DNA of 64,000 nt from Candidatus Daviesbacteria bacterium (GTDB taxonomy: Bacteria > Patescibacteriota > Microgenomatia > Daviesbacterales > UBA10151): NCBI GenBank assembly GCA_016176405.1, contig JACOXG010000010.1, forward strand, positions 33,078 through 97,077, given 5' to 3'. The notes under the pieces are model-generated. The model was not told the DNA's origin, did not search any database, and saw nothing but the letters and a program-made list of their open reading frames with translations. The position numbers and the translations under genes were made by a program. This document shows, one piece after another, positions 19,480-61,083 of the stretch; position 1 is the stretch's first letter, and every line of letters begins with the position of its first letter.

Positions 19480-21399
19480 TTGAAAATATCAGAATATCTT
19501 CCAGAGTTACCTGGTCTAATGCAGCAAGAGCAAAGATTAACTTCTCTTGCTGATCAATTGTCTCTAATAAAAGCTGATTCAGATACATATCGTGCCCCGT
19601 CCCTTGGCCTCGATACAATTATAAATACCTGGCTTAGAAATCAGTTAGTATATCGCCAAAATATGATGACTGATTTAATGAGAATTTCTAAAACTATAGA
19701 AGAAATACGAGCGCCGATTCATCATATAACTGCCGAAGTATTTCGTAGGGGTATTTCATGGAAGCCAAAATTCGCTGTTAAGTGCCAGGAATGCCAGACA
19801 GAATATAATGATGTCATGAAAGAATGTCCTAAATGTCATTCTACAGACCTAATATCTCCAGATGAAGGACAGAAGAAAAAATTAGAAAGTTTTCTTATTG
19901 ACTGTAACATATTTGATAATAGTTTAGAAGAAGTTTTAAGACAGTTTAATTATGACTTAAATGCACTTGATGATGCATTCCTGTATCTCGTTAAAGAATA
20001 CATGGCTGCTGAAGACGGAAAAATTAGATCTAAAGTAATCGAAGTGAGGCGATTGGATCCAGCCTTTATGGAGTTTGATTTAGATCCACAAGGTCTTCCT
20101 AAGAATAAGTCATTTCTTTGTTATATTCATAGAGATATAAATGTAGCCACAACTCCTGGGGCTTGTATTGAATGTGGCAGAACATTAGTCCCAGCAATGT
20201 ATAAATACTATCACAGAAATAAGCCGATGTATTTGCTTGATACTGAAGTGATACATTCTTCAAAATTTGACCCGAGCGAAACTTACGGTTGGAGCCCCAT
20301 ATTAACTATTTTTGAAAAGGCAATGACTATTATCGGCATGGATCGTAATATGTATCGTTATTTCTTTGAGCGCAAAATGCCTGCAGGGATGATAATGGTG
20401 TTTACGGATAACCCAGAGAGTCTTATAAAAGAACGGGCAGAGTTAGCCTTAAAGACTAGACAAGACCCAAATTATATTCCAATGGTTGCTGTATCGTCTA
20501 AAGGAAATCGTGGAAGAGTGGACTTTGTAAAGTTATTTCATACATTACAAGAAATGGACTATATGCCTGTAAGAAATGAAATAAGAGAGAGAATAGCATC
20601 TATGTGGGGAGTTACCCCAGCTTGGCAAGGTGCCCCAGATGCATTTGGTGGTATTTCAAATCAGACACAACAATTAACAGTGATGTCTCGTGTAGTAGAA
20701 ACAGATCAGAGATTATTTCACGATAAAGTTTTTCCTAGAATTATGGATTCATTTGGAATAACTGATTGGGAGTTAGAGCTTCCCATACCAGAAGAGAAAG
20801 CAGAAGCTACCAGAATTTCATTTGCTCAGCAAAAAATTAGTGCAGCAAATATGCTTCTCCAAATGGGCTTTGATGTAAAGGCTAAATCTCAGGAAGTCGG
20901 ATTAATTGATATTGATTTTGTAGTATCTGGTGAAGCAAAGAAGATAGATTATAGTTCAATGATGGGTGGAGGACAAGGGGGACTAGGTGGAATGGGGGGA
21001 GAAGGACTGCCAGGAGGGATTCCTGGATTAGAATTACCTGAAGAAGAGCAACCAAGTCAAAACCAATCACAGCAATACCCTGAACAAGGTTTGAGACTAA
21101 TGGAAAAAGCACACGGATGGGCAGACCAGATATTAAAAGCTGGATATTTTCCGATGATAAAACAAGTAAATCCAGTTGGGCCTGTGATTTGGTTTACTCA
21201 AAATAATACTGATTATGTGGCTAAGTTTGATAATAATATTTTGAAGGATATAAGTAAGGCAATCTTTCCCCGACTTCATGCACATGACGGTCGTCCTCCT
21301 CATGATCCAAATATTCCCCATAATACAGTAGATAGAAAATTACAGAGTGACAGCAAGATTTTCGAAGCAGAAGAGCCAGACGAAGTTGATAATGAATAG
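19480..21399 (+). CDS. putative portal protein (with zinc-ribbon insert and Gly-rich C-terminal segment)
   Basis: Size and position after the terminase. 'GGGQGGLGGMGGEGLPGG' low-complexity tail. Start is uncertain (TTG). Confidence 0.45.
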   Translation: MKISEYLPELPGLMQQEQRLTSLADQLSLIKADSDTYRAPSLGLDTIINTWLRNQLVYRQNMMTDLMRISKTIEEIRAPIHHITAEVFRRGISWKPKFAVKCQECQTEYNDVMKECPKCHSTDLISPDEGQKKKLESFLIDCNIFDNSLEEVLRQFNYDLNALDDAFLYLVKEYMAAEDGKIRSKVIEVRRLDPAFMEFDLDPQGLPKNKSFLCYIHRDINVATTPGACIECGRTLVPAMYKYYHRNKPMYLLDTEVIHSSKFDPSETYGWSPILTIFEKAMTIIGMDRNMYRYFFERKMPAGMIMVFTDNPESLIKERAELALKTRQDPNYIPMVAVSSKGNRGRVDFVKLFHTLQEMDYMPVRNEIRERIASMWGVTPAWQGAPDAFGGISNQTQQLTVMSRVVETDQRLFHDKVFPRIMDSFGITDWELELPIPEEKAEATRISFAQQKISAANMLLQMGFDVKAKSQEVGLIDIDFVVSGEAKKIDYSSMMGGGQGGLGGMGGEGLPGGIPGLELPEEEQPSQNQSQQYPEQGLRLMEKAHGWADQILKAGYFPMIKQVNPVGPVIWFTQNNTDYVAKFDNNILKDISKAIFPRLHAHDGRPPHDPNIPHNTVDRKLQSDSKIFEAEEPDEVDNE

Positions 21400-22375
21400 T
21401 TGTGAATGTGGTTGTGGTATAGAGTGTAAGAAGAGATTTGTTCATAATCATCAGAAAAGGAATGTTCATTTATCTGTTGAACACAAAATAAAACTTAGGT
21501 TGGCTGGATTGGGAAGAAAACAGTCTAAAGAGACAATTGAGAAGAGAGTTGCTAAGATAAGAGGAATAGCATGTTCTGAAAATACTAAAAGCAAAATTAG
21601 CGAGACATTAAAGAAATATGAAATTACTAAGGTTCATCGGGATGCTCTTTCTAAGTCTAAATATGGGAGGGTATTGAGCGAAGAGCATAAAAATGCTATT
21701 AGATTAAATCGTCCAGATTTTTCAGGTAATAAACATCCGATGTATGGCAAGCATCACTCAGAATCTACTAGAATTAAAATGTCTTTGTCTCAAAAAGGAA
21801 AGAAACATTTATATGCATATAAGTTTTCAGAAAAAGATAAAGTTAAAATATCTATAGCTAGAAAAAGTAAGAAATTATCGGAGCATCATATTGAAGCACT
21901 GAAAAAGTCTTGGAATAACCCAGAAGTAGCAGCTAGAAGATTATTTAGTATTTTAAGAAGTAATTTTAATAGACCCAATAAATCAGAAACAAGGTTGTCT
22001 TTACTTTTATCAGATTTAAATACAGACTTTAAATATGTTGGCAACGGAAGTTTTATTATTGATCATAAAAATCCAGACTTTGTAAATAAAGAATCTAAGA
22101 AAATAATTGAGTTACAAGGTTGTTACTGGCATGGCTGCAAAATTTGTTTCCCAAATTCTAAGAAATCAAATAATTTTCCAGATCGTCAACAAATTTTTAA
22201 ACCTGCTGGATATGATTCAATAGAAATCTGGGAGCATGAATTGAAGAGTCCAGAAGTAGTAATTAGCAAAGTTAAGGATTTTAATAGTTTAGATGAAATT
22301 GAAAAGGCATGTAAAGAACAGGAAAGAATATCTTTAATGAGCATTGCTTTACATGACAGAAAAATTAAAGATTAA
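21392..22375 (+). CDS. homing endonuclease: zinc-finger N-terminus, NUMOD3 repeats, C-terminal Vsr/DUF559-like nuclease
   Basis: Repeated 'G..HSEETK.KIS.S.KGK'-like NUMOD3 units ('YGKHHSESTRIKMSLSQKGKK', 'SEEHKNAIRLN', 'SEHHIEALKKSW'). C-terminal 'PDF..IIELQGCYWHGC' resembles the Vsr core 'FVDGCFWHGH'. Confidence 0.6.
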   Translation: MNSCECGCGIECKKRFVHNHQKRNVHLSVEHKIKLRLAGLGRKQSKETIEKRVAKIRGIACSENTKSKISETLKKYEITKVHRDALSKSKYGRVLSEEHKNAIRLNRPDFSGNKHPMYGKHHSESTRIKMSLSQKGKKHLYAYKFSEKDKVKISIARKSKKLSEHHIEALKKSWNNPEVAARRLFSILRSNFNRPNKSETRLSLLLSDLNTDFKYVGNGSFIIDHKNPDFVNKESKKIIELQGCYWHGCKICFPNSKKSNNFPDRQQIFKPAGYDSIEIWEHELKSPEVVISKVKDFNSLDEIEKACKEQERISLMSIALHDRKIKD

Positions 22376-24392
22376 CTCGTCTGTGTTTGAGGTTGATCTA
22401 GCCTTTACTCCGTTTAAACAATTTGTCGGTCTCTCACAACACCAGGATTTAAAAGCTAATTCTGGTATGCTTTTTATTTATCCTAGTAGTAAGCAAAGAA
22501 TTTTTAATACGTTGCAAATGAAATTTCCTATTGATTTTGTCTGGATAATGCATGATGGAAGAATTTCTAGTATAACAGAAAACGTACCTCCAGAAAAACA
22601 GCAAGTGGAGTCTATTAGTCCAGCAAAATATATTTTAGAATTAAATGCTGGAGAAGTTAAAAAGAACAACATAAAAGTTGGAGATATGGTAGAGAACTTA
22701 CCCGATGATTCAGATATTGTACTTAGGAAAAGCAATGATTTCATTCATTTACAGGACTATAAATCAACTGGGAATTTAACCGAAGTAAAGACAGACCATC
22801 CATATCTTCGTAGGAAAAGGTCATATGGACTTAAGTTGCCGTCATTGTCTAAGGTTAATAGTTCATTAAGTCAAATATTCAAAGAATGGGTGGAAAAACA
22901 ACCTCGTCCAGGTCTAGTCCCAAAAAGTGGTAATTGGAAATATCCATATAGATGGATTAGACCAAGTAAGATTGAAGAAGTAAAAGATAGGTCAAATGAT
23001 AATTTTCAAAAAATAGACAGGTTTAGAAGTGCATTATCTAGAAGAAAGTCAATAGAATCTATGGACGATGAAGAGGCCATAGACAAGAATCTGGACACAT
23101 TTCATTTATTATTAGAAAACTTAGGGGCCTCGAAAAAAGAACTTGATGCTTCTGATGATTCATTACTTTCTTATTATTCATGGAAATTTGAGGAAAGATC
23201 ATTAGGGGCTGCCATGCTTAGATATGGTATTGCAGTTAGTTTAGGAAAGGATCCAATTGTAGAATTGAAGGACTATGGCATTTCTGATAGCATTATTAAA
23301 AAAATCGGGCAAGACAAAGATTATGTAAAGTTGACTACACAAATTCTACAAAAAATAACGTCATTATATATGAAAAATAAGTATGGTGATACAGTTCATT
23401 TATATAGAGGTATTCCAAAGGGAGAAAAAGTTAAGACTGTAAATGTATTATCCTACACGACAGACCCTACTGTAGCAGCTCGTTTTGCGGGGAAGGATGG
23501 GAGTATTATAGGGGAAGATATTTCAACTGATCAAATTTGGGCAGCAGATGAAATATTTTATCCAAGGGCAGAAAGTGAAGTTATTGTAGGTCTAAAAAAC
23601 AATTCAATAAATAAGCAATTAAACGGAACAGTGTATACATCAGAAGATGTATCAAGCTCAGTGGCTGATAAATGGGCCCCATTAAATCCGGATTGGAAGA
23701 ATTATGCGAAGAGAAAGACTTCCCCCAATAAGATTTTAGATGAATGGCTTGAAAAACAGAATGCAGACTTGGTCCCTAAAAAAGTCCCAATTCATTTGCA
23801 AACAGGTAAAGTTGTTTCGGGCATTAGGTGGGTTAAGCCAGAAAAATTTGAAGGAGAGACTCAGAAAGCTTTATCATTTGATGATGCTTCAGAGGCAAAT
23901 AAATGGAGAGACAAAATTAGAGGGTCTAAAATGGGGTCTGAAGAAAGAGCTACTTTACGAGATTATATAGGATTCGGAAATACGATGACAAATACATATT
24001 TACGACAAGGGTATAAAAAGAATCCATTACTTTTAAATAAAATCTCAGCCTTAGATTCTCTTATTCAAAAAACAACTATTCCTAATGATGTGATTGTTTA
24101 TAGAGGGACAGAGAATTTAGATTTATCCATTGGGGATATATTTATAGATAAAGGGTTTTTGTCTACTACATTAACATCTAATATGGCGCGTCTTTTTGTT
24201 ACAAATAAAGGTGCCTTATTTAAAATTCATGTAAAGGCAGGGACTCCCGTAACTTTAGGGCAAGACAAAGAGCTAGAATTGATTTTTGGTCGCGAATCAA
24301 AGTTTATAGTAAAAGATAAATATTCTCCTCCTCCGGACCCATATTTTCGAGGCAGATATACAATATATGAATTAGATATGGTGTCTTCTTAA
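22344..24392 (+). CDS. multidomain protein: DUF192 domain followed by two ADP-ribosyltransferase (R-S-E class) domains, each preceded by the conserved N-module
   Basis: DUF192 'GMLFIYP..FPIDFVWIMHDGRI'. ART1 'HLYRG..SYTT..ESEVIV'. ART2 'VYRG..LSTTL..ELELIF'. N-modules at about 22881-22980 and 23738-23850. Confidence 0.55.
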   Translation: MLYMTEKLKINSSVFEVDLAFTPFKQFVGLSQHQDLKANSGMLFIYPSSKQRIFNTLQMKFPIDFVWIMHDGRISSITENVPPEKQQVESISPAKYILELNAGEVKKNNIKVGDMVENLPDDSDIVLRKSNDFIHLQDYKSTGNLTEVKTDHPYLRRKRSYGLKLPSLSKVNSSLSQIFKEWVEKQPRPGLVPKSGNWKYPYRWIRPSKIEEVKDRSNDNFQKIDRFRSALSRRKSIESMDDEEAIDKNLDTFHLLLENLGASKKELDASDDSLLSYYSWKFEERSLGAAMLRYGIAVSLGKDPIVELKDYGISDSIIKKIGQDKDYVKLTTQILQKITSLYMKNKYGDTVHLYRGIPKGEKVKTVNVLSYTTDPTVAARFAGKDGSIIGEDISTDQIWAADEIFYPRAESEVIVGLKNNSINKQLNGTVYTSEDVSSSVADKWAPLNPDWKNYAKRKTSPNKILDEWLEKQNADLVPKKVPIHLQTGKVVSGIRWVKPEKFEGETQKALSFDDASEANKWRDKIRGSKMGSEERATLRDYIGFGNTMTNTYLRQGYKKNPLLLNKISALDSLIQKTTIPNDVIVYRGTENLDLSIGDIFIDKGFLSTTLTSNMARLFVTNKGALFKIHVKAGTPVTLGQDKELELIFGRESKFIVKDKYSPPPDPYFRGRYTIYELDMVSS

Positions 24393-38513: not shown

Positions 38514-40403
38514 ATGATAAATGAATTCACATTTCTTCGAGTATATAAAGACATAGCATATCAAAAAGCATCAGAAACTGATGTTAATATGTTATACAAT
38601 GATTTGTCTAGTGATATTGGAGACAAGCCAGAATTCAATAAGTGGTTTGAGAATAAATATCCGATAAAGCTAGATAAGATTATTTCTATTGATGCTATTG
38701 CTCATGAGATTCATGCTAATGGAGATTCCGTATTACAGAAAATTTATCCTGGGGCTGACATAGATATATTTAAGTCGGAACTCGATAGACTGGCAGGTAT
38801 GGAAAATACAAATGATGTCAGAAAACTAAATAGGGGATTCTTTACAACTTTACTTAGTGACGGAGACTTGATATTTCTTGAAAAGCAACAAGTCGGAAGA
38901 ACGATAAAGGATGATATATTCCCAGCAATAGAAGAATATAAGAAACTATATGATGCTGGAATAGGGTCTAAGGGAGAATTGCTGACATTAGATAGATATT
39001 ATAGGGGGCAAAATAAGAAATACCATGATGATGTAATTAGCAAGGGGCTTGATAAAGACGAGAATGAGCCAATGGTTATTGGTGGCCCCGCATCATTAGA
39101 AATGGTTGATAAGGAAGGACATCTAATCACAGCTAAAGCTCTTGATGCAGCATTTTATAAGTTTATGAATCAATTTAGAACTCGTGATATAAACTTAGCC
39201 CATACGGATGTTCAAATTGGCTGGCCATTGCCTGCATATATAACAAAAAATGGTAGCGTATTCCAGTCTGGCGTAGATGATAAGGGGCTATGGGTTATAT
39301 CAGAATTAAGGGACGACAATAAGATAGCAAATAGGGTTGCAGAGCAAATAAAAGCAGGAGTATTTAAATCATATTCTATAGCTGGGAGCGCATCAAAAAC
39401 ACAGAATGTGCAGAAAGGGGCACAGAATTATACGCAAGTAGATGAACTTTCCCTACAAGAAATTACAATTTGTTTACCTTTCGGGTCAAAAATTTGGACT
39501 TTGGTAGGGCTAAAAAATATTGAAGACATAAAAGTCGGCGAATTTGTACTTACCCATAAAAGTAGATTTAAGCCTGTAGTTAAGACCTTTAAAAGATTTA
39601 CAGATGAAGAAATAGTAGTCTTAAAAACAGATTTTGGTAATGTTTTAAAGGCTACTAAGGAGCATCCGGTTCTAGTCAGAGAAGAGTTTGATGGACAGGT
39701 TAATAAAAATTGGGTTCCAATAAAGAATTTAATCCCAAGTAATGAAGTGTATGTGTATGATAGTTTGCATAAAAATTCGGTCTTTACAGAAGTTTGGATT
39801 AAAGAAATTAGTGTAGAAAATTATAAAGGGTATGTGTATAATTTAGCAGTAGAAGAAGATAATTCATATACTACGGAGGCTTGTGTAGTGCATAATTGCG
39901 AAAAAGGAATGAATCAAGGAGCACATTTTGATATATTGAAGGGAGAGAAAATGGCCTTAGATGAAATATTTAAAGGAGATTGGGACAAATATGCCGATTA
40001 TGGCAGTGGATATTATTACAAGTTTATAAAAGAAAATCCAGAGTTCGACACTAAAGAATTTCAAGAATATGTAATAGTACATAATAAAGCTGACAGAGAC
40101 TCTGGAGAATTGGGAGATATAGCCAATTTTGAAATTGATAGATTAGCCAATGAATTTGGTTCTAAAAACTTACAAAAGGGTATAGATATTACAAAGGAGT
40201 ATAAGGATATGAATGCATTTGATGCTCTACGAAAGTTCTTGGAAAAGGATGCTGATGATAGACAAAAGGCTCATAGAGAGCTTCTAGACAAGTATGGTTT
40301 TCCAGAAGATGGTGAATACAAAAATGTTCGGGAAGATAAGGATGATGAGATTTATCATTATGAACCGTGGACCGCTAATACCTCTGGGAGAATTAAAGAA
40401 TAA
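38514..40403 (+). CDS. HK97-type prohead protease (U35/S78-like) interrupted by a mini-intein
   Basis: Protease core 'GGPASLEMVDKEGHLITAKALD..LAHTDVQIGWP..KGLWVISEL..KAGVFKSYSIAG'. The intein runs 39471..39896. Confidence 0.6.
   Translation: MINEFTFLRVYKDIAYQKASETDVNMLYNDLSSDIGDKPEFNKWFENKYPIKLDKIISIDAIAHEIHANGDSVLQKIYPGADIDIFKSELDRLAGMENTNDVRKLNRGFFTTLLSDGDLIFLEKQQVGRTIKDDIFPAIEEYKKLYDAGIGSKGELLTLDRYYRGQNKKYHDDVISKGLDKDENEPMVIGGPASLEMVDKEGHLITAKALDAAFYKFMNQFRTRDINLAHTDVQIGWPLPAYITKNGSVFQSGVDDKGLWVISELRDDNKIANRVAEQIKAGVFKSYSIAGSASKTQNVQKGAQNYTQVDELSLQEITICLPFGSKIWTLVGLKNIEDIKVGEFVLTHKSRFKPVVKTFKRFTDEEIVVLKTDFGNVLKATKEHPVLVREEFDGQVNKNWVPIKNLIPSNEVYVYDSLHKNSVFTEVWIKEISVENYKGYVYNLAVEEDNSYTTEACVVHNCEKGMNQGAHFDILKGEKMALDEIFKGDWDKYADYGSGYYYKFIKENPEFDTKEFQEYVIVHNKADRDSGELGDIANFEIDRLANEFGSKNLQKGIDITKEYKDMNAFDALRKFLEKDADDRQKAHRELLDKYGFPEDGEYKNVREDKDDEIYHYEPWTANTSGRIKE
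39471..39896 (+). other. mini-intein (142 aa, no endonuclease domain) inside the prohead protease gene
   Basis: Block A 'CLPFG', block B 'TKEH', blocks F/G 'VYNLAVEEDNSYTTEACVVHN' followed by Cys+1. Length 426 nt, in frame. Confidence 0.65.
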
Positions 40404-41662: not shown

Positions 41663-42604
41663 ATGATTCATGTAAGATATGCCCCAAGCCCTACGGGAGA
41701 TCCTCATGTAGGAAATTTGCACACAGCTCTATTTAATTGGTTGTTTGTAAAACATTTTGGGGGGAAATTTACATTAAGGATTGATGATACAGACACTAAT
41801 CGAAATGTGCCAGATGGATTAGATAAAATTTTAGATAGTTTGGCGTATCTGGGGATGGATTTTAATGATGGCCCATTTTTTGCTTCTGATAGTTTAGACA
41901 GTCATAGATATGCCGCTGATAAGCTTGTTAATTCAGATAATGCATATTACTGTAATTGTACCAATGATGCTTTAAGGATTGCTAGAGAGTTCGCTGTCAG
42001 TAACAGAAAGGCATATAAATATAATAACCATTGTCGTGACTTAGGGCTTCGTAAAACAACGGATTCAGTTATCCGTTTTAAAATGCCATTGGATGGTGTC
42101 ACAAAATTTCATGATATGATTTATGGGGATATATGTTTTGATAATAGTCTGTTAGAGGATTTTGTAATTATGAAGTCTAATGGTTATCCTACATATCATT
42201 TAGCTACCGTTATTGATGATAATAGAATGAATATTACTCATGTTATGAGAGCCAATGATTGGATTTCAAGCACTCCAAAACATATCTGTATTTATAATGC
42301 ATTGGATTATGTATTACCTAATTTTGTTCATTTGCCATTAATTTTAGACAAGGATAGAAAAAAATTGAGTAAACGTTCTGGAGATGCTACATCAATTCTT
42401 TGGTATAGGGATAATGGTTATTATCCTGATGCCATGATTAATTTCTTGGCTTTACTTGGTTGGTCATTGGACGATAAAACAACAATTATTTCTAGAGCAG
42501 ATTTGATTAAATACTTTAGTCTAGACCGAGTTAGAAAATCGAGTTCCATATTTGATACTAACAAATTAGATTGGATTAACAAAAAGTATTCAAACATGCG
42601 ATAA
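41663..42604 (+). CDS. truncated class I glutamyl-tRNA synthetase paralog (GluQRS/YadB-like catalytic domain)
   Basis: 'RYAPSPTGDPHVGNLHTALFNWLF..FTLRIDDTDTNR' (HIGH region, ~ GluRS '[31 protein letters not shown]'). KMSKS is 'KLSKRSG'. At 313 aa it lacks the anticodon-binding domain. Confidence 0.65.
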   Translation: MIHVRYAPSPTGDPHVGNLHTALFNWLFVKHFGGKFTLRIDDTDTNRNVPDGLDKILDSLAYLGMDFNDGPFFASDSLDSHRYAADKLVNSDNAYYCNCTNDALRIAREFAVSNRKAYKYNNHCRDLGLRKTTDSVIRFKMPLDGVTKFHDMIYGDICFDNSLLEDFVIMKSNGYPTYHLATVIDDNRMNITHVMRANDWISSTPKHICIYNALDYVLPNFVHLPLILDKDRKKLSKRSGDATSILWYRDNGYYPDAMINFLALLGWSLDDKTTIISRADLIKYFSLDRVRKSSSIFDTNKLDWINKKYSNMR

Positions 42605-46186: not shown

Positions 46187-46260
46187 TGTGGATTAGTATA
46201 ATGGTAGTACATCAGGTTTTGACCCTGAGAATTTTGGTTCGAATCCAGAATCCACAGCCA
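46187..46260 (+). tRNA. tRNA-Gln (anticodon UUG), CCA encoded
   Basis: Hand-folded cloverleaf: 7-bp acceptor stem TGTGGAT/ATCCACA with U1-A72, discriminator G73, U8, D-loop GG, anticodon loop 'TTTTGAC' (UUG), T-arm TTTGG-TTCGAAT-CCAGA, 3' CCA. 74 nt. Confidence 0.8.
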
Positions 46261-48154: not shown

Positions 48155-49726
48155 ATGAAAACAATATTATTTAAAGACAAAGCAAGAAAAGAACTTTTTG
48201 AAGGCATTAAAGTTCTATATGATGCTGTAAAATTCACTTTAGGCCCAAAAGGTAGAAATGCTGTTTTGCAAATGAGAACTGGCTATCCAAATATTTGTAG
48301 TGATGGGGCGACAATACTAAAGGACTTGTCATTACCAGACAGAGCACAAAATGCGGGGATGCAAATAGTAAAAGAAGCATCACAAAAGACCAATGATGCT
48401 GTAGGAGATGGGACTACTACATCAACAGTTTTAGCCTATTGGCTAGTATATGAGGCTTTCAAAGCCTTAGAGGCAGGACATTCTCCGTTAGACATTAGAA
48501 ATGGAATTGAACACGCATTAAAGCTAGTGAAATATGACTTATCTAAAATGTCTGTTCCAGTTAATAGTACACTACAAATCCAGCAAATTGCAGCCTTGGC
48601 TTCTCATGATGAAGAAATGGGGCAAATGGTAGCTGATGTATTAGCGAGAGTTGGATTAAAGGGGACTGTAGTTGTAGAGGAAGCCAAAGTTTTAAAAGAT
48701 ATAGTTGAATATGTAGATGGTATGCAGATTGATAGGGGATATTTAACGGAAAACTTTGCTGCTTTATATAATCAGAATGAAGTAACATTAGACAATCCAT
48801 ATATTTTAATTACAGAGCAGCCTATTTCAAATCCAAATGATATGGCAGCAGTTCTAGATAAAGTAGTGCAGAGTGGGAAACAGAACTTATTAGTAATAGC
48901 CGAAGATGTTATTGGCCATGCTTTGTCAACGCTGTTAGTTAATGTGCAGAAGAGGACAGTAAATAGTCTAGCAATTAGAGCGCCAGCAATTGAATTTCGT
49001 AGGACTGATATGCTAGAAGATATTGCAGTATTTACTGGTGGGGTAATGATTTCTAAGGCTTCTGGTAGAAGTATTAAGAATATTGAATTGTCAGATTTAG
49101 GCAGAGCAGGCAGAGTAATATCAACTAGAGATATAACAACTATAATTGGGGGCAAGGGAGAAAAGCAGAAAATACAAAATAGAATTAGTCAAATAAGGGA
49201 TGCGGACAGTAGAGAGAAGTCGCAATTCGACAAGGATTTGTATAAGGATCGTATTGCACACTTGTCTAGTGGTATAGCAGTAATCAAAGTGGGTGGAATA
49301 TCTGATGTAGATGTCCGAGAACGAAAAAGTAGAGTAGATGATGCTCTTGGCGCAACAAAGGCTGCAATGGAAGAAGGCATAGTTCCTGGCGGTGGAGTAG
49401 CATTGATACAAGCTTGTTCTCTATTAGATAATTTAAGACTAACAAATACACAGGATAGCCTTGGAGTTAAAGTATTCTACAATGCATTACAGCATCCATT
49501 ATGGTTAATTGCAGATAATTCAGGATATAATAACGGGGAATATGTTATAGAAGTAGTAAAGAAAAAGCAGACTGGTTATGATGCTTTTACAGGAGAATTT
49601 TGTGATGCAATAGAGAGAGGGATAGTAGACCCTACAAAGGTTGTTCGAGTAGCATTGGAAAACGCAGTTAGTGTTGCTTTTATATTGTTGACTACAGAAG
49701 CAGTTGTAGCAATCAAGGAGGAATAA
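48155..49726 (+). CDS. GroEL-like chaperonin (Cpn60 family)
   Basis: 'AVKFTLGPKGRNAVL', 'DAVGDGTTTSTVLA' and 'VPGGGVALIQA' match GroEL signature blocks. Confidence 0.8.
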   Translation: MKTILFKDKARKELFEGIKVLYDAVKFTLGPKGRNAVLQMRTGYPNICSDGATILKDLSLPDRAQNAGMQIVKEASQKTNDAVGDGTTTSTVLAYWLVYEAFKALEAGHSPLDIRNGIEHALKLVKYDLSKMSVPVNSTLQIQQIAALASHDEEMGQMVADVLARVGLKGTVVVEEAKVLKDIVEYVDGMQIDRGYLTENFAALYNQNEVTLDNPYILITEQPISNPNDMAAVLDKVVQSGKQNLLVIAEDVIGHALSTLLVNVQKRTVNSLAIRAPAIEFRRTDMLEDIAVFTGGVMISKASGRSIKNIELSDLGRAGRVISTRDITTIIGGKGEKQKIQNRISQIRDADSREKSQFDKDLYKDRIAHLSSGIAVIKVGGISDVDVRERKSRVDDALGATKAAMEEGIVPGGGVALIQACSLLDNLRLTNTQDSLGVKVFYNALQHPLWLIADNSGYNNGEYVIEVVKKKQTGYDAFTGEFCDAIERGIVDPTKVVRVALENAVSVAFILLTTEAVVAIKEE

Positions 49727-49728
49727 CA

Positions 49729-50343
49729 ATGGAATATCCAAAAATAGAAACATTATTTGATAGGGATAAAGACACATTTAAGGTTGATACAAGTAAATGG
49801 AGACTCCCAGAATTTGAGTATCTTCAAAATAATGAATGGCTTGTAACAGAAAAAATAGATGGGACAAATATACGAGTTATGTGGGATGGACAAAAAGTAG
49901 TGTTTGGTGGTAGAACTGACAATGCCAATCTATCAGCTTCTTTGGTAACTAGACTCCAAGAATTGTTCCCAGTAGAAAAATTCCAACTAAATTATCCTAA
50001 TGTATCCATGACTTTATATGGAGAGGGATACGGGGCAGGAATTCAAAAGGGTGGTGGAAATTATCTTCCAGATGGGAAGGATTTTATTTTGTTTGATGTG
50101 CTAATAAAGGACTATTGGCTATTGCAAGATGATATGAATGGCATAGCATCTAAACTGCAAATTAAGACTGTGCCATTTTTAGGGAAATATAATTTGAATG
50201 TTGTTACAAATATGGTGAAGTTAGGATTAGTTTCTACTTTTGGGTCATTTAAAGCTGAAGGTGTGGTAGTGAAGACTCCAGTTGGTCTATATTCTAGGTA
50301 CAATCAAAGACTTGTCGGGAAGTTAAAAGCGACAGATTTATAA
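49729..50343 (+). CDS. ATP-dependent RNA/DNA ligase-family nucleotidyltransferase (minimal Rnl-like)
   Basis: Motif I 'KIDGTN', motif III 'TLYGEGYG', motif IV 'FILFDV', motif V 'EGVVVK'. Confidence 0.55.
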   Translation: MEYPKIETLFDRDKDTFKVDTSKWRLPEFEYLQNNEWLVTEKIDGTNIRVMWDGQKVVFGGRTDNANLSASLVTRLQELFPVEKFQLNYPNVSMTLYGEGYGAGIQKGGGNYLPDGKDFILFDVLIKDYWLLQDDMNGIASKLQIKTVPFLGKYNLNVVTNMVKLGLVSTFGSFKAEGVVVKTPVGLYSRYNQRLVGKLKATDL

Positions 50344-51194: not shown

Positions 51195-51803
51195 ATGATG
51201 GACGAGAAGAATAGACAAGCAATAATAGATTATTTTAGACAAATTCGTCCTAGAAGAACTATAGCTAGAATTCAAGTTCAGGGGACATTTATTGCGTGTG
51301 AATTTGACAATGGAACTCGTTGGGAAGTTCGATCAGCTGATATTCCAATAGATTATTCTAGCAGGGACTTAGAAGTAATTGATTTAGCATATTCAGAAAA
51401 AATTTCTCCTGGTGATTTTGCTGATGCTATGGAGAATCTATCTTGGAAGCAATTAAATGAATTTAAGAGATATTGGGAGAATCAATATCCAACTTTAAAA
51501 ATTGACATTAATTCCAAAATTACAAATGAGACAGAATTGTTTCAGTCTACAGTATGTAAATTTTTAAATATTTCATTAGAAGAATTTATGGCTCAGTATG
51601 GAAAAAAGAAGACCGAAGCTATGATCGAAGGGGTCGGAGCCTGGAAACCACTAAAAAATGATGAAGCATTTGAATCAATGTATACAATGGAGCCTAAGTG
51701 GGAGAAACCTATAGGTTGGACACAAAGGGCTAAGAAAGAGATGACAGAGGAAGAGAATATTGAAATTGTAGATAACCAGAAGCGTAAAATCATTCTAGAT
51801 TAG
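51195..51803 (+). CDS. hypothetical protein with shared C-terminal tag (..VDNQKRKIILD)
   Basis: C-terminal peptide shared with 60227..60781 and four others. Confidence 0.4.
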   Translation: MMDEKNRQAIIDYFRQIRPRRTIARIQVQGTFIACEFDNGTRWEVRSADIPIDYSSRDLEVIDLAYSEKISPGDFADAMENLSWKQLNEFKRYWENQYPTLKIDINSKITNETELFQSTVCKFLNISLEEFMAQYGKKKTEAMIEGVGAWKPLKNDEAFESMYTMEPKWEKPIGWTQRAKKEMTEEENIEIVDNQKRKIILD

Positions 51804-52648: not shown

Positions 52649-52926
52649 TAAGGAGAATGTATCCGATGCTTCAGTATGAGGTAATAGCAGAGTTTAGGTC
52701 AAAGACTAAGCCTGGGAAATGTTACATAGTTAAGAAAAGATTAGACACCGGAATGCTAACTTGCAATTGCCCAGCTTGGATTTTCAATAAATATGAGGAT
52801 AGAACTTGCTATCATACATTAAAGTTAATGGCAAGTGGGGCATTGCAGTCACAGCAGCAAAATCAAGTTATTGATAGAATTGAGGCTGTCAATTCAGGAA
52901 GGAGAGTATTGATACTAGATGAGTAA
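52639..52926 (+). CDS. SWIM-type zinc-finger protein
   Basis: 'CNCPAWIFNKYEDRTCYH' fits CxCx(n)CxH. Confidence 0.35.
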   Translation: MGIIRRMYPMLQYEVIAEFRSKTKPGKCYIVKKRLDTGMLTCNCPAWIFNKYEDRTCYHTLKLMASGALQSQQQNQVIDRIEAVNSGRRVLILDE

Positions 52927-53289: not shown

Positions 53290-54849
53290 GTGGAGAATAG
53301 AAAAGTGACAAATAAGTTCCAGTCTACTTTAGCCGCATATAATAAGGCGTCATATGCCTTGATATATTGCAAGACACCAGAAGAGCTAAGGGCAACACAA
53401 TCAATTCAAAAACTTTCTTTTGAGCTTGGCAGAACATTTGGTTTATGGTCTGTGACTAAGGGATGGAGACTTTTCGGTAATAAGACTAAATTTGGGCAGG
53501 TTACTGAAGTTTTTGATATTACTGACCCAGTCGAGGCTATGAAGAAAGTATCCACTTTTCCAAAAGGGGCTGGTATCTATGTGCTAATCAATTTCCACCC
53601 ATTCATGAAAAGCCCAGAGGCAATTCAGCTATTGAAAGATACAGCCGAAACTTGTCGAGAGGATAATGTCACTCTTGTATTTGTGTCCAATGTAATGGAA
53701 ATTCCAACAGAGCTCTCTAGGGATTTCACTCAGCTAGATTTTTCATTGCCAGATGAAGAGGAGCTTGAGAGCAGACTAAATGAGATAGCCAAAAATGCCC
53801 CTACTGTGAAATTGCCTGCTGACGTCTCTCCGTTAATAGACGCGGGCAAAGGGATGACAGGATCAGAATATTCTGATGCCCTTGCAAGTATGTTGGTAAA
53901 GGAGAAGAAATATAATCCTTCAAGTGTTCTATTGGAAAAAGTGAAAATCCTTGAGAAGGCATCTATTAGATACTACAATTCAAGTCTGAATCTAAATGAT
54001 GTTGGTGGACTTGAGAACTTGAAGAAGTGGGCAGTATCCGTTAAGCCAACATTTGGAACAAAGGCAAAGACTGCTGGAGTAAAGCCGCCAAAGGGAGTAT
54101 TGTTAGTTGGAGTTCCTGGCTGCGGAAAGAGCTATGTTATGAAGGCTATGTCTTCGGCTTGGGGAATTCCATTGCTATGGGGAGATATATCAGCAGCATA
54201 TTCTAAGTTTCTTGGGGAGACAGAGGAGCGAATGAAATATATGTTTGAGGTGTCCAGAATAATGTCTCCTTGTATATTGGGAATTGATGAATTGGAAAAG
54301 AGCATTGCTGGATATGAAGGTGGGGGGCAAACAAGTGGGGGTGTCCCAAATAGAGTGCTAGGAATTATGTTGACAGAGATGCAAGAGTCTGACTCATCAG
54401 TAGTAATAGTAGCCACAGCAAATGAAGCATGGAAGCTGCCTGCCCCGCTTGTCAGAAGGTTCGATGAAGTATTCTTTGTAGACCTCCCTAGTGACCCAGA
54501 GAGGAAGGACATATTTAAGATTCATTTGGCAAAGGTAAAAGCCAGCAATGATATGGATATAGAGCATCTATCAAAAATAACAGAAGGATTCTCTGGGGCT
54601 GAAATAGAGAAGGTATGTCGAAAGGCTCAAATTGCAGCCTTCGGAATGAACCAGAAGATTAGCCAGAACTATGTTGTTACAGCAGTGAATGGGATAGTCC
54701 CAGTCAGTACGTCAATGGCTGAAGAAGTAACAGCTATTAGAAAGTGGGCAGAGGCAAGAGCGGTGCCAGCATCAAAGATTCAGGCATATGATATTACTAA
54801 GGGTAGACGGGCACTTGATCTTAGCGATGGCCCAACAATTATGGCATAG
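53290..54849 (+). CDS. AAA+ ATPase (classic AAA clade) with the C-terminal tag ..RRALDLS 8 aa before its end
   Basis: Walker A 'GVPGCGKSY', Walker B 'ILGIDELEKS', SRH 'LPAPLVRRFDEVFFVDLP'. Confidence 0.75.
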   Translation: MENRKVTNKFQSTLAAYNKASYALIYCKTPEELRATQSIQKLSFELGRTFGLWSVTKGWRLFGNKTKFGQVTEVFDITDPVEAMKKVSTFPKGAGIYVLINFHPFMKSPEAIQLLKDTAETCREDNVTLVFVSNVMEIPTELSRDFTQLDFSLPDEEELESRLNEIAKNAPTVKLPADVSPLIDAGKGMTGSEYSDALASMLVKEKKYNPSSVLLEKVKILEKASIRYYNSSLNLNDVGGLENLKKWAVSVKPTFGTKAKTAGVKPPKGVLLVGVPGCGKSYVMKAMSSAWGIPLLWGDISAAYSKFLGETEERMKYMFEVSRIMSPCILGIDELEKSIAGYEGGGQTSGGVPNRVLGIMLTEMQESDSSVVIVATANEAWKLPAPLVRRFDEVFFVDLPSDPERKDIFKIHLAKVKASNDMDIEHLSKITEGFSGAEIEKVCRKAQIAAFGMNQKISQNYVVTAVNGIVPVSTSMAEEVTAIRKWAEARAVPASKIQAYDITKGRRALDLSDGPTIMA

Positions 54850-55119: not shown

Positions 55120-55974
55120 ATGTTAGAAAAGATTTGGAAAGATGGTGTTGCACTATCAGTAGATGTTCGGCTTTGGGGAGGGGATGCAGCGCTTGACCCA
55201 GAAGATGTAGGTTTGAGTAGTGTTGATGTACCTCAGGATTTATTCCAAATGGGCAGAAAGAGACTAGTCCCAAAGCTAAGCATGTCTAATCTCGTGGCAT
55301 ATAGGATGAAGACCAGGAATGTATTATTCAGGTACAGTTTTCCAATGCCATTTGGGGATACGTGGTTTGTCCCTTGGACGAATGTGAAGGAAGTAGTAGA
55401 TTGGTTAAAGGAGACACAATCACAGTTCTATAAGGATACAGATAAATTTTTATCTGAGTATGATACTCTGAGAGAGTCCTTTTTGGCAGAGCATGAACAA
55501 TACAGGAAAGTGTTAGAGCCTTTCTATCCATCACAGAAAAGACTTTCAAATAAGTTTTATTTCAAATACAGTCTTTTTGAACTGTCTGTTCCTCGGACTG
55601 GGGTGCTATCAGCAGAAGATGCACAGAGAGTAGACCAGGAGACAGATAATTTTTTGAAGCAAGTTACTACTCAATTGAGACAACAAGCAGGAGATGCAGC
55701 TTCAAAGTTAGCTGCTACTCTTGAAAAGGATTCAGCCACAAAGGCCAGCTTAAAGTCTGCTCAAAACATGGTGGAAAGATTTAAGAGCTTGAACTTTGTC
55801 AAAGACACAAAGATGGAGAATGCTTTGAATCTTTTGAATGCTGCTCTTTCAGTTGGCCTTGATAATCCAGAGCTAGTGGAAGCAGCAAAAGGAGTTGTGG
55901 TAGAGGCAAGAGTTAATGGTAACACAGTCAATGAGATTGTAGGAAGTTATAAGAGAGCGTTAGATTTAAGTTAA
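55120..55974 (+). CDS. hypothetical protein with C-terminal tag (..SYKRALDLS)
   Basis: Shared C-terminal peptide. Confidence 0.4.
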   Translation: MLEKIWKDGVALSVDVRLWGGDAALDPEDVGLSSVDVPQDLFQMGRKRLVPKLSMSNLVAYRMKTRNVLFRYSFPMPFGDTWFVPWTNVKEVVDWLKETQSQFYKDTDKFLSEYDTLRESFLAEHEQYRKVLEPFYPSQKRLSNKFYFKYSLFELSVPRTGVLSAEDAQRVDQETDNFLKQVTTQLRQQAGDAASKLAATLEKDSATKASLKSAQNMVERFKSLNFVKDTKMENALNLLNAALSVGLDNPELVEAAKGVVVEARVNGNTVNEIVGSYKRALDLS

Positions 55975-55986
55975 GGAAGGCATGAG

Positions 55987-56244
55987 ATGGCAAAGTATGA
56001 ATTATATGACCCAGAGAATAATAAAGAAGAAGAAATGCTTTTTGATGCAGAAGAAGAAATGGACTCATGTTTAGAGGAGTTAAAGGATGACTTGAGGGAA
56101 ATAGTAGATGCTTTTAACTTTAAGTTTAATGATTGGAAGGAAAAGCATAGAAAGTTGGGGGCTAGTGATACAGCAGTAAAAGAGAGCGTTCATATAAAAG
56201 TTAAGAGTATTTTTAGCAATAATCTGGGAAGGATTGACATCTAG
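55987..56244 (+). CDS. hypothetical acidic protein
   Basis: ORF only. Confidence 0.3.
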   Translation: MAKYELYDPENNKEEEMLFDAEEEMDSCLEELKDDLREIVDAFNFKFNDWKEKHRKLGASDTAVKESVHIKVKSIFSNNLGRIDI

Positions 56245-56919: not shown

Positions 56920-57243
56920 ATGAGAAAAGGAATTCAAATGAAAGAAGTCGTGGAGGATGAGACCATGGAAGAGGTTGGGCTGCTTGTAACAACAGCATAC
57001 AAAGGGGTATTTTTTGGGTATGGCATCTTTTCGGATGCTGCCCAGATTACATTGAAGCGTGCCAGAATGTGTATCTATTGGCCAACAGGAGAAAAGGGAG
57101 TAATGGGATTAGCACTCGTAGGGCCGCTCCCAGGGGCTAAAATTGGGCCTGCTGTGCCATCCTTGATTTTGCGGGATGTAACTGCTGTCGTTATATGTAC
57201 GTCTAGTGCTATTGAGAAGTGGGAGAAGCCACCGTTATGGTAA
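56920..57243 (+). CDS. hypothetical protein
   Basis: ORF only. Confidence 0.3.
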   Translation: MRKGIQMKEVVEDETMEEVGLLVTTAYKGVFFGYGIFSDAAQITLKRARMCIYWPTGEKGVMGLALVGPLPGAKIGPAVPSLILRDVTAVVICTSSAIEKWEKPPLW

Positions 57244-57914
57244 CATTAGCTAATGTTATTAATGGCCCTAGCTATGGCTATGGCTATGGCTATGGCGATG
57301 GCTCTGGCTATGGCTATGGCTATGGCGATGGTTCTGGTTATGGCTCTGGCTATGGCTCTGGCTATGGCTATGGCTATGGCTCTGGTTATGGCTATGGCTA
57401 TGGCGATGGCTCTGGCTATGGCTATGGCTATGGCGATGGTTCTGGCTATGGCTCTGGCTCTGGCTCTGGCGATGGCTATGGCTCTGGCTCTAGCTATGGC
57501 TATGGCTATGGCTATGGCTATGGCTCTAGCTATGGCTCTGGCTCTGGCTCTGGCGATGGCTATGGCTCTGGCTCTGGCTATGGCTCTGGCTATGGCTCTG
57601 GCTCTGGCTATGGCTATGGCTCTGGCTATGGCTATGGCTATGGCTATGGCTATGGCGATGGTTGCTTTGATTACATTCGGACACTGCAGGAGACAGGACT
57701 GCTTACAACTAATTTCATTTTTGCCTTGCCAACAGAGATGCAGAAAAAGTTGAAGCTATTAAAATTAGTTACCCCAAATTCATTGCAAGAAAAAAAGAGA
57801 TCAGTTAAAACTGAATTAGATAAGTATAATTTGAATATTTCTACATCTTTAAAAGAAGACTATTCAACCAATATAATATTCAATAGCGGGAAAAGAAAGA
57901 TAGACTTATCTTAG
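57219..57914 (+). CDS. Gly/Tyr-rich tandem-repeat protein (GYGYGYGDGS)n with a globular C-terminal region and C-terminal tag (..NIIFNSGKRKIDLS)
   Basis: About 130 aa made of G-Y-G/S-D repeats. The last 18 aa are nearly identical to the end of 57936..58718. Confidence 0.5.
   Translation: MGEATVMVTLANVINGPSYGYGYGYGDGSGYGYGYGDGSGYGSGYGSGYGYGYGSGYGYGYGDGSGYGYGYGDGSGYGSGSGSGDGYGSGSSYGYGYGYGYGSSYGSGSGSGDGYGSGSGYGSGYGSGSGYGYGSGYGYGYGYGYGDGCFDYIRTLQETGLLTTNFIFALPTEMQKKLKLLKLVTPNSLQEKKRSVKTELDKYNLNISTSLKEDYSTNIIFNSGKRKIDLS
57268..57662 (+). repeat. imperfect hexanucleotide tandem repeat (GGCTATGGCTATGGCGATGGCTCTGGC units)
   Basis: Repeated GGCTMT/GGCGAT units. This is the coding repeat inside the Gly/Tyr-rich protein gene. 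Confidence 0.8.
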
Positions 57915-57935: not shown

Positions 57936-58718
57936 ATGAGATCTATTTGGGACAAAACAGTTTGTATCGGTTCTGGCACTACTCCAGCTAAGATCTATAA
58001 TTTTTTTGACTATGGGGGAGATTTTAAAGAAGGAAAGTGTTTTGACTGTGGAAAAATTTTTAGACTAAATTATATCAGTGGCTTAGTGAGACAGCATTTT
58101 ATAAATACGGGGCCAATTGAATATCGCGATAATTGGGGGCCAGAATTTGCAAAAGAATACTTGAAGAGCATTCGTTTCAAAAAAGAAAGACAAGTGATAA
58201 AAAGTGCAGTTAAAGCACAGAGAGCTGCTGAAGAGAGGGGAAGAAAGCAAAAACAAGAAAATGATAATATTGTAGATAATATTAAATCTCAGATGTCATT
58301 AAAAGAATTTATAGTTCAATATGGCAATAAGCCTGTTCCTAGTTTATTTATAGACAAATGGGTCCCCAAGATTGGAGACAGAGTAAAAGTAATTGGGTCA
58401 TTTAAGGATTGCGGGGGGAGGGTGGCTAGTCATGATTGCCATTTACGTAAAATGATAGGTAGAGTAGGAGAAATAACTTCTCTAAACTTAATATACGAAA
58501 ATCATAATATTGGTGTTAAATTTGGTTATGGAGATGACATATCTGTCGGACATTATTCTGGCTTAGAGATAAAGCCAATTTTTAGCTCATCCCAAAAAGA
58601 AAAGGGGTCTATTGCATCAAGGCTGAAGAATTTTGATTTGAATGTATTTTTAAAAGAAGAAGATTATTCAGGCAATATAATATTTAACAGCGGCAAGAGA
58701 AAAATAGATCTGTCTTAA
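57936..58718 (+). CDS. hypothetical protein with C-terminal tag (..NIIFNSGKRKIDLS)
   Basis: Shared C-terminal peptide. Confidence 0.4.
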   Translation: MRSIWDKTVCIGSGTTPAKIYNFFDYGGDFKEGKCFDCGKIFRLNYISGLVRQHFINTGPIEYRDNWGPEFAKEYLKSIRFKKERQVIKSAVKAQRAAEERGRKQKQENDNIVDNIKSQMSLKEFIVQYGNKPVPSLFIDKWVPKIGDRVKVIGSFKDCGGRVASHDCHLRKMIGRVGEITSLNLIYENHNIGVKFGYGDDISVGHYSGLEIKPIFSSSQKEKGSIASRLKNFDLNVFLKEEDYSGNIIFNSGKRKIDLS

Positions 58719-60226: not shown

Positions 60227-60781
60227 ATGGAACGATTTAAAATAGGGGATTTAGTTCAGGTCTATGCTTTATGCAAAATTGTAGTACATGAACCGCCTTT
60301 CTTAGGAAAAACTGGTAGAATATCCCAAATAAGCAGATTTGAGGGACACAACATTAGTGTTATATTTGATGACATTAAATATCCTTGTGTGTATGATCAA
60401 AATGAGATACAATTAGTTGATGCTAATGAATGGATACCAAAAGTTGGAAATCTTGTTAAAGTTGTAAATGTTTGTAAAGCTATATCAATTATGGCTCATC
60501 GATGCCACGACAAAGATATTTTGCAACAGGTTGGTATAATTGAAAATATAAATGATATAGAAATACTTAATCATCGTATTCTTATTAGGTTTAAGAACAA
60601 TAAACTTCTATACGGCCATTATTCTAAAGCAGAATTAGAACTTGTAAACACATGGTTAGACCAGAACAAACGAAAGCCATGGATAGAAGAAATACAGAAT
60701 ACATTGGTGGACATGAAAAAGAAACAAGAAGACCAATTCTTAATTATTGACAATCAGAAAAGACGAATAGACTTAGACTAA
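60227..60781 (+). CDS. hypothetical protein with C-terminal tag (..IIDNQKRRIDLD)
   Basis: Shared C-terminal peptide. Confidence 0.4.
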   Translation: MERFKIGDLVQVYALCKIVVHEPPFLGKTGRISQISRFEGHNISVIFDDIKYPCVYDQNEIQLVDANEWIPKVGNLVKVVNVCKAISIMAHRCHDKDILQQVGIIENINDIEILNHRILIRFKNNKLLYGHYSKAELELVNTWLDQNKRKPWIEEIQNTLVDMKKKQEDQFLIIDNQKRRIDLD

Positions 60782-60786
60782 ATAAA

Positions 60787-61083
60787 ATGCAGACATTAAT
60801 TTTAAAAGTCCTAGTTGGATCTAAAGCTCATGGTCTTGCTAACAAAGACAGTGATACAGATTATAGGGGAGTTTTTGTAGAATCAACATCTGAAATTCTG
60901 GCAATGAAGAAATTAACTATTAAAAAAGTTGAGCCAAATCTTTATGAAATATCAAATTTTGCTTCATATAAAACAGTGACTTTATTTGCCACAGCAGAAG
61001 AATTAGAAGAACTTCATCAAGCATTAGAAAATATAAGTTGTTTGGATGAGAATTGTTCTTGTTATATTAAAGCTATGTCTTGA
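60787..61083 (+). CDS. hypothetical protein
   Basis: ORF only. Confidence 0.3.
   Translation: MQTLILKVLVGSKAHGLANKDSDTDYRGVFVESTSEILAMKKLTIKKVEPNLYEISNFASYKTVTLFATAEELEELHQALENISCLDENCSCYIKAMS

Follow-up and report, generated by a model that had tools for sequence, protein, structure and literature searches.

A tyrosine- and glycine-rich repeat gene behind a DUF6948 gene

The DNA analysed here, referred to as the window, is a stretch of 64,000 nucleotides (nt) from the roughly 110-kb contig JACOXG010000010.1, and is a fragment of a tailed-phage genome with a G+C content of 35% and every gene on the + strand. At 57 kb it contains a gene for a 225-residue protein that carries a long array of X-Gly dipeptides, (X-Gly)n, immediately behind a gene for a small protein of the DUF6948 family (Table 1). 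Comparison with other phage sequences indicates that DUF6948 and the (X-Gly)n gene together form a cassette that is widespread in phages and so far unrecognised.

The open reading frame (ORF) listed in the first-pass annotation at 57219-57914, and described there as holding a hexanucleotide repeat, is present with its repeat in both the ORF list and the Tandem Repeats Finder output. We consider ATG 57237 more likely than 57219 to be the start codon, because it overlaps the upstream stop codon (ATGGTAA), is preceded by GGGAG 11 nt upstream, and was picked by an independent gene caller on a Logan contig. Tandem Repeats Finder detected one array (57271-57661; period 6, 65.2 copies, 86% matches, score 537, consensus GCTATG), with the unit GGCTAT, which is by far the strongest repeat of the window. 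Its 66 dipeptide units comprise 36 YG, 20 SG, 7 DG, 2 SS and 1 PS, with Gly in the second position of 63 units. Tyr makes up 27% of the 132-aa array, Asp is the sole charged residue, and [G/S]Y[G/S] motifs occur 36 times. TAT accounts for 38 of the 39 Tyr codons and GGC for 59 of the 66 Gly codons. This composition agrees with the earlier description of a Gly/Tyr/Ser-rich low-complexity protein resembling FUS or silk.

PHROGs, PADLOC and NCBIfam contained no match for the repeat protein or for its DUF6948 partner, and PDB sequence searches matched only artificial linkers and other low-complexity stretches. A Pfam match to TrAA12 (26.5 bits, against a cut-off of 30.9) was rejected as a composition artefact. 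Calcium-binding RTX repeats were also rejected: the array has no GGxGxD motif and no GG dipeptides, and HemolysinCabind gave no match.

Three further sequencing runs (SRR12113430, SRR12113384 and SRR12113383) yielded Logan contigs whose flanks are identical to those in the window and which, coming from either side, stop within the array. Because three other runs carry the same flanks and array ends, the array is real and not an assembly artefact; because all of these contigs break off within it, its exact length in the window is uncertain. At least three Logan runs contain the same phage; one of the Logan contigs reaches 93 kb past the repeat. The proteins flanking the repeat ORF are found at NCBI (MBI2020186.1 and MBI2020188.1); the repeat ORF itself is absent from the protein collection that contains both.

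Pairing and overlap with DUF6948

The DUF6948 protein was predicted, with a predicted local distance difference test score (pLDDT) of 92, to be a five-stranded and strongly bent beta-barrel of the Sm type. No N-terminal helix is present in the model, and an extra helix is inserted at 60-67.

The two genes occur together in other phages. Among the IMG/VR loci found by a (YG)5 DNA pattern, 74 have enough upstream sequence, and in 66 of these a DUF6948-like ORF is the immediate upstream neighbour, on the same strand; for this count the DUF6948 profile was iterated on the fetched loci, and drift was checked by eye. In the reverse direction, an array lies no more than 300 nt downstream of DUF6948 in 38 of 49 IMG/VR loci, and within 600 nt in 5 more. 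The remaining loci include 3 that are truncated and 3 without an array, so that 43 of 46 evaluable loci have one. The pair was also present in all ten other loci: L126-L129, three metagenome-assembled genomes (MAGs; Obscuribacterales, Chthoniobacterales and Actinomycetota), and the cultured phages Ymer, phiPLPE and NK-7. The pairing of DUF6948 with the array is near-obligatory and reciprocal.

The start of the array gene overlaps or abuts the DUF6948 stop codon in about 65 of 75 pairs, at offsets of -25 to +6 nt. An offset of -1 was seen in 14 pairs and one of -4 in 10, with -13, -16 and -19 among the others; the window junction, at -7, has the same relative frame as most pairs. Such overlapping or abutting starts and stops are a signature of translational coupling.

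The neighbours of the pair in other phages include helix-turn-helix (HTH) regulators, NinG, RecT, YqaJ, SSB, Erf, dUTPase and VapE. These neighbours place the cassette in early or recombination regions. No third conserved cassette gene was found; the neighbours are heterogeneous among the loci compared. Many contigs stop a few hundred bases past DUF6948, as would be expected if assembly breaks at the array, and these contig ends are systematic, not random.

Leaders in relatives include MFRPVG, METTLTLDG and MEAVISVG. A short-peptide sub-family, MFRPVG-(Y/N/D-G)n-TVST..RR, in loci L016, L023, L053, L076, L086, L114, L115 and L120, is found in every case behind a single DUF6948 sub-family (AVVVVDRGWIFAGD...). 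For the 'LTLDG' leaders, too, the type of leader follows the DUF6948 sub-family.

Occurrence and length variation in other phages

A whole-sequence search of metagenomic proteins gave 2088 matches at E <= 0.001 among 8000 candidates scored. All 18 matches inspected share the same design, in which a short leader runs into (X-Gly)n and a C-terminal domain usually follows. The (YG)5 DNA pattern matched at least 120 IMG/VR contigs. The first-pass annotation had called such repeats rare in phages, which is contradicted by these counts and by the cultured carriers described below: the (X-Gly)n design is common in uncultured phages, its rarity being confined to the literature and to cultured phages.

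The C-terminal parts differ between lineages. Two unnamed families (a and b), DUF6745 and DUF5758 are attached to the array in other phages, some members have nothing after it, and DUF7666 is placed in front of it in some lineages. Since different C-terminal domains or none are attached, the array and DUF6948 form the functional core, and the C-terminus is an interchangeable adaptor. In one IMG/VR locus (L020, 1660-2968), four or five tandem paralogous array genes lie behind a single DUF6948 gene. These paralogues have a common leader, MGLKAFLKFG, and a common tail, EPNLTSAGATVVEE, with arrays of different lengths.

The cultured carriers are Ralstonia phage NK-7, whose array protein XCO36015.1 is annotated as 'fibroin heavy chain-like protein', Pectobacterium phage Ymer, in which the array protein is CDS0032, and Iodobacter phage phiPLPE. 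They were found only via a query from a divergent DUF6948 subfamily; tblastn of the window DUF6948 or of the family-b domain against cultured phages gave no match. Comeau et al. 2012 (PMC3391216, Table 3) entered a 210-bp repeat of phiPLPE, (KMGCCG)35, among the repeat regions and raised the possibility of an attachment site. This repeat (NC_011142.1 46,046-46,255; about 1175-1420 of locus L135) is an unannotated ORF, MSRLVNNKNG(DG/SG/YG)n, directly 3' of the DUF6948-like gene gp84. In the literature, no paper was found on this protein family or on DUF6948.

Arrays differ in length between near-identical phages. Loci L041 and L057 have flanks that are 99.5% identical and arrays that differ by 156 nt, corresponding to 26 units, with the frame kept. 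Loci L127 and L128 share 99.66% identity in the sequence leading up to the array, and differ from there on. The repeat had been proposed as a hotspot for length variation, with a comparison among relatives as the check; these differences bear the proposal out for the family.

Coding capacity of the array

Several lines of comparative evidence indicate that the repeat ORF is translated, and that its reading frame is under protein-level selection. In 121 arrays of other phages, the Tyr codon tracks genome G+C, with TAT at 80% at low G+C and TAC at 97% at high G+C, and Tyr stays at about 50% of X positions in every G+C class. His and Cys, the transition neighbours of TAT, make up 1% of X or less; Asp, Ser and Asn, its transversion neighbours, make up 5-30%. 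The other reading frames encode (AM)n and (LW)n in the window, as against (AT)n and (LR)n in other phages. In many relatives the array runs on in frame into conserved globular domains.

The C-terminus of the window protein provides evidence of the same kind. As had been claimed, it carries a shared tag: the last 14 residues are identical to those of the next protein, p260. Over these 14 residues and the stop codon the two genes have 8 synonymous or silent nucleotide differences, which argues for selection on the protein in this frame. No ATG in the correct frame lies between the array and the conserved tag region, and past the array Met occurs only once, at residue 169. A non-coding variable-number tandem repeat (VNTR), with the real gene starting downstream, is rejected by the shift in Tyr codon with the residue kept, the property-filtered substitutions, the in-frame downstream domains and the conserved tag, and family members always start upstream of the array.

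The Gly codon behaves differently from the Tyr codon. GGC makes up 71-90% of array Gly codons at every genome G+C, including the arrays in loci L005-L124. In the window, its share of Gly codons is 89% in the array and 13% elsewhere, where it is the rarest Gly codon; the adjacent DUF6948 gene, unlike the array, encodes Gly by GGG and GGA.

The C-terminus and its shared tag

The part after the array, previously taken as an ordinary 90-aa domain, proved to be an orphan of 83 aa with no confident fold. No homologue was found in 5.8 billion proteins, in 1.84 billion cluster representatives or in IMG/VR, and the single HMMER match was rejected as a spurious multi-repeat eukaryotic protein. AlphaFold2 (AF2) assigned the C-terminus a pLDDT below 50, with weak helices at 142-196 and strands at 200-224.

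The tag has the form of three hydrophobics, x, [N/S], x, [K/R], R, x, [I/L], [D/I], L, [S/D]. It occurs on eight proteins, all encoded at 51-61 kb (Table 1), and on none of the proteins of the other 50 kb. One of the eight is a classic-clade AAA ATPase. Homologous ATPases end in ...KVRVLDL* (Mycobacterium phage NiebruSaylor) and ...GKRAGMSLDS* (Rhizobium phage L338C), and the genes downstream of these two end in ...ARRAVKL* and ...GRNRKLKL*. Because homologous ATPases of unrelated phages end similarly, the tag is regarded as an old feature of the ATPase neighbourhood that has spread in this phage. Similar endings were seen on homologous AAA ATPases and on the products of neighbouring genes in L338C, NiebruSaylor and Aeromonas phage HJ05 (L133, L137 and L138), and a possible ninth tag (...GKIADLSA) lies just outside the window (L001 9530-10882).

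A degron, a docking motif and a capsid signal are the three candidate roles of the tag. By analogy with AAA unfoldase docking tails, it may be a docking or recognition motif. It resembles the beta-clamp-binding motif (QL[SD]LF) and the MuA-like degron of ClpX in its L-D-L core and basic cluster, and differs from them in lacking the Gln/Phe or terminal hydrophobic residues that define them.

Among the tagged proteins, p260 and the 184-aa protein have in common a module of about 70 aa, 'KIGDxVKV...G.I', which is SH3-like or KOW-like by eye. The module occurs twice in the 184-aa protein, and gave no Pfam or PHROG match.

Gene neighbourhood in the window

The repeat gene is 33-40 kb away from the terminase and portal genes, and is surrounded by early-type genes. 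No close relatives of the phage were found in INPHARED by megablast, or in IMG/VR with the C-terminal domain or the AAA ATPase as query. The contig was deposited under a Candidatus Daviesbacteria MAG, a member of the candidate phyla radiation (CPR), yet is clearly a phage genome, either of a CPR phage or mis-binned.

Table 1. Features of the repeat gene, its DUF6948 partner, the tagged proteins and the head module in the window
Feature	Position	Strand	Evidence or remark
DUF6948 (PF22253) gene, small Sm-like beta-barrel	56920-57243	+	PF22253 match, E 1.9e-18; alternative start 56938 gives a 101-aa form
ATGGTAA junction	57237-57243	+	Repeat-gene start overlaps DUF6948 stop by 7 nt
(X-Gly)n repeat protein gene	57237-57914	+	225 aa plus stop; ORF list, translation, family architecture
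N-terminal leader MVTLANVING	57237-57266	+	Alternating hydrophobic, strand-like, Gly at end; similar 3-20 aa leaders in relatives
(X-Gly)66 array, residues 11-142	57267-57662	+	(GGCTAT)n repeat; Tandem Repeats Finder, composition, codons
Non-repetitive C-terminal 83 aa	57663-57914	+	No homologue outside this phage
Extended C-terminal region, aa 184-225	57786-57911	+	BLASTP against next gene: 24/42 identical (57%), E 1e-10
Core C-terminal tag NIIFNSGKRKIDLS	57870-57911	+	14 residues shared with p260
p260, 260-aa neighbour, tag NIIFNSGKRKIDLS	57936-58718	+	NCBI MBI2020188.1
184-aa protein, tag FLIIDNQKRRIDLD	60227-60781	+	p260 paralogue by eye
85-aa acidic protein, tag variant IFSNNLGRIDI	55987-56244	+	C-terminus comparison
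DUF3150 protein, tag EIVGSYKRALDLS	55120-55974	+	C-terminus comparison
Classic-clade AAA ATPase, tag KGRRALDLSDGPTIMA 7 residues before end	53290-54849	+	CDC48/FtsH/PAN-like
89-aa protein, tag variant IEAVNSGRRVLILDE	52657-52926	+	C-terminus comparison
202-aa protein, tag variant IEIVDNQKRKIILD	51195-51803	+	C-terminus comparison
Terminase	14966-16438	+	Head module
Portal	19519-21399	+	Head module

The window also contains a genuine phage ClpP (37763-38386; PF00574, E 1e-44), separate from the CDC48/FtsH/PAN-like AAA ATPase at 53290-54849. ClpP and the ATPase could form a phage-encoded unfolding or proteolysis system for the tagged proteins. A 313-aa Glu/Gln tRNA synthetase with the catalytic domain only (GluQRS-like) is encoded at 41663-42604, and a tRNA-Gln gene lies at 46187-46260. 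An RNA ligase, an RlaP fragment and RtcB are also present (49729-50343, 60787-61083 and L001 5249-6403, in the order reported). The synthetase, RNA ligase, RlaP fragment and RtcB suggest functions in tRNA modification and repair. Further unusual phage cargo comprises a fusion of DUF192 with an ADP-ribosyltransferase, an S78 prohead protease with an intein-like segment, a GroEL-type chaperonin and an aldehyde dehydrogenase (coordinates, as listed, 22353-24392, 38514-40403, 48155-49726 and 11415-12902).

Proposed function and alternatives

We are highly confident that the repeat ORF is a translated gene with a near-obligatory, coupled Sm-like partner and a variable in-frame array, and that the two genes are an accessory cassette of early regions. 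Our explanation of its function goes further, and we give it a probability of about 0.45: the repeat protein would be a cytoplasmic, self-associating, Tyr-rich scaffold or tether that acts together with DUF6948. From its composition and its AF2 model, the array is expected to be intrinsically disordered, or at most silk-like, as well as strongly self-associating and mildly acidic. The AF2 model of the repeat protein has a mean pLDDT of 33, and about 30 across residues 1-142, values that point to disorder but, coming from a single sequence, are weak evidence for it. Its 36 evenly spaced tyrosines may act as 'stickers' between Gly/Ser/Asp 'spacers', making the array a multivalent scaffold or tether in the form of a condensate, gel or cross-beta polymer. 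The protein would be made in step with DUF6948, and the leader probably lets DUF6948 hold or nucleate the array. Repeat slippage would tune the valency, and the tag NIIFNSGKRKIDLS would link the scaffold to a hub shared with the other seven tagged proteins, the AAA ATPase and the DUF3150 protein among them.

In a broader form, which we consider unlikely, the cassette would be a widespread two-component system, in which a ring-forming Sm-like protein nucleates or controls a Tyr-rich polypeptide that becomes a condensate or silk-like polymer in infected bacteria. Slippage would tune valency and swappable C-terminal adaptors or tags would choose clients, making the system a viral counterpart of granule scaffolds of the FUS type or with Sm tails.

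Two observations weigh against a self-associating Tyr-rich scaffold. The arrays of Ymer and NK-7 are Tyr-poor and Ser/Asp-rich, and therefore tyrosine stickers are not the whole story. The GGC preference at all G+C contents is unexplained by a purely protein-level model.

A role as an anti-host or anti-defence decoy is also unlikely, although several features of the cassette would suit it. The acidic, Tyr/Ser-rich array would serve as a pseudo-substrate or sponge, candidate targets being a defence sensor, a protease and a tyrosine kinase or phosphatase of the host, with DUF6948 as its chaperone and the variable C-terminal domains providing targeting. The tyrosine clusters of Gram-positive BY-kinases are YG-rich. 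Accessory cassettes in early regions amid unrelated neighbours are typical of host-takeover and anti-defence genes, the swapping of C-terminal domains across lineages (families a and b, DUF6745, DUF5758) fits such a role, and rapid variation in array length fits an arms race. Against it, PADLOC models and named families gave no match, and the array-only members carry no targeting domain.

A function of the repeat as RNA or DNA, with the peptide secondary, is improbable. On this view the (GGCUAY)n tract would serve in binding or regulation, and the Sm-like DUF6948 might be what binds it; Sm-like folds typically bind single-stranded RNA. The share of GGC in arrays at any G+C, contrary to the usage of the phage and of the DUF6948 gene itself, speaks for this reading. 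The hexamer itself is not conserved, because the Tyr codon drifts with G+C, and substitutions at X are filtered by amino-acid property. Arrays also continue in frame into conserved domains and a tag conserved at the protein level, and the alternative frames change identity between phages (AM/LW to AT/LR).

The first-pass annotation suggested a disordered internal head protein, on condition that the shared C-tag is a capsid-loading signal, a reading to which we assign little probability. Capsid targeting by C-terminal peptides is known, for example from the HK97 protease tail and from encapsulin cargo, and here too several proteins share a short terminal tag. The location of the gene among early-type genes, far from the terminase/portal head module, tells against it, as does the presence of the cassette in early and recombination regions of other phages. 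The tag is found on the AAA ATPase and on its homologues in unrelated phages, the predicted proteases of the window have no such C-terminal tag, and most family members have no tag at all.

A non-coding VNTR or attachment site, as the phiPLPE repeat was described, is very improbable: the phiPLPE array is listed as a 210-bp repeat and unannotated in NC_011142, and the window ORF is missing from a protein collection that has both its neighbours, but the synonymous changes in the tag, the codon drift, the start-stop geometry, the DUF6948 pairing and the invariable starts upstream of the array tell against it.

Significance

Low-complexity proteins rich in aromatic residues are regarded as unusual for prokaryotes and phages. 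Aromatic residues were found to be strongly under-represented in the low-complexity regions of 102 phage proteomes, in which the longest such region was 115 aa (PMC6821194). A protein of strict Tyr/Ser/Asp-Gly dipeptide repeats is common in uncultured tailed phages with hosts from several phyla. It has been overlooked because assemblers break at the array, annotators skip it, and the only paper found to mention it took it as a non-coding repeat. If the array does form condensates or fibres, the cassette would offer a simple and genetically tunable way to study phase separation, both in bacteria and during phage infection. The cultured carriers Ymer, NK-7 and phiPLPE make it directly testable.

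Comparison with known systems

The closest likeness is to the other arrays linked to DUF6948, those of NK-7, Ymer, phiPLPE and metagenomic phages, which have the same upstream DUF6948 gene, overlapping start and stop, a leader, and Y, S, D or N at X. They differ in what follows the array, which is nothing or other domains, in contrast to the orphan tagged 83-aa tail of the window phage.

The low-complexity domains of the FUS family appear similar in their Gly/Ser/Tyr composition, evenly spaced [G/S]Y[G/S] motifs and lack of a predicted fold. The phage array differs in its strict two-residue periodicity, its lack of Gln, Asn and Pro, its acidity, a Tyr density about twice as high, the absence of an RNA-binding domain in the same chain, and its occurrence in a bacterial virus. 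Searches of Pfam and PDB sequences gave no relative that would indicate homology to FET-family proteins. The (Gly-X)n repeats of the silk fibroin heavy chain likewise have Gly at every second position and Ser and Tyr at X, whereas the phage array has no Ala at X, contains Asp, and is small and intracellular, without a signal peptide. AF2 predicted no silk-type sheet with confidence.

Sm and Hfq proteins with Gly-rich tails resemble the cassette in combining an Sm-like barrel with a Gly-rich, aromatic-containing low-complexity polypeptide. Eukaryotic SmD1 and SmD3 carry RG tails. The Hfq of Acinetobacter baumannii has a glycine-rich C terminus, according to the passage of PMC12802169 that cites Sharma et al. 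2018. The array belongs to none of the FUS, silk and Sm/Hfq-tail groups, because no homology is detectable.

The tag is comparable to terminal-tag systems (the HK97 protease, encapsulin cargo peptides, T4 internal proteins, and the degron or docking tails of AAA+ proteins) in being a short motif on unrelated proteins. Its sequence is unlike any of these, and it is tied to the gene neighbourhood of a classic-clade AAA ATPase.

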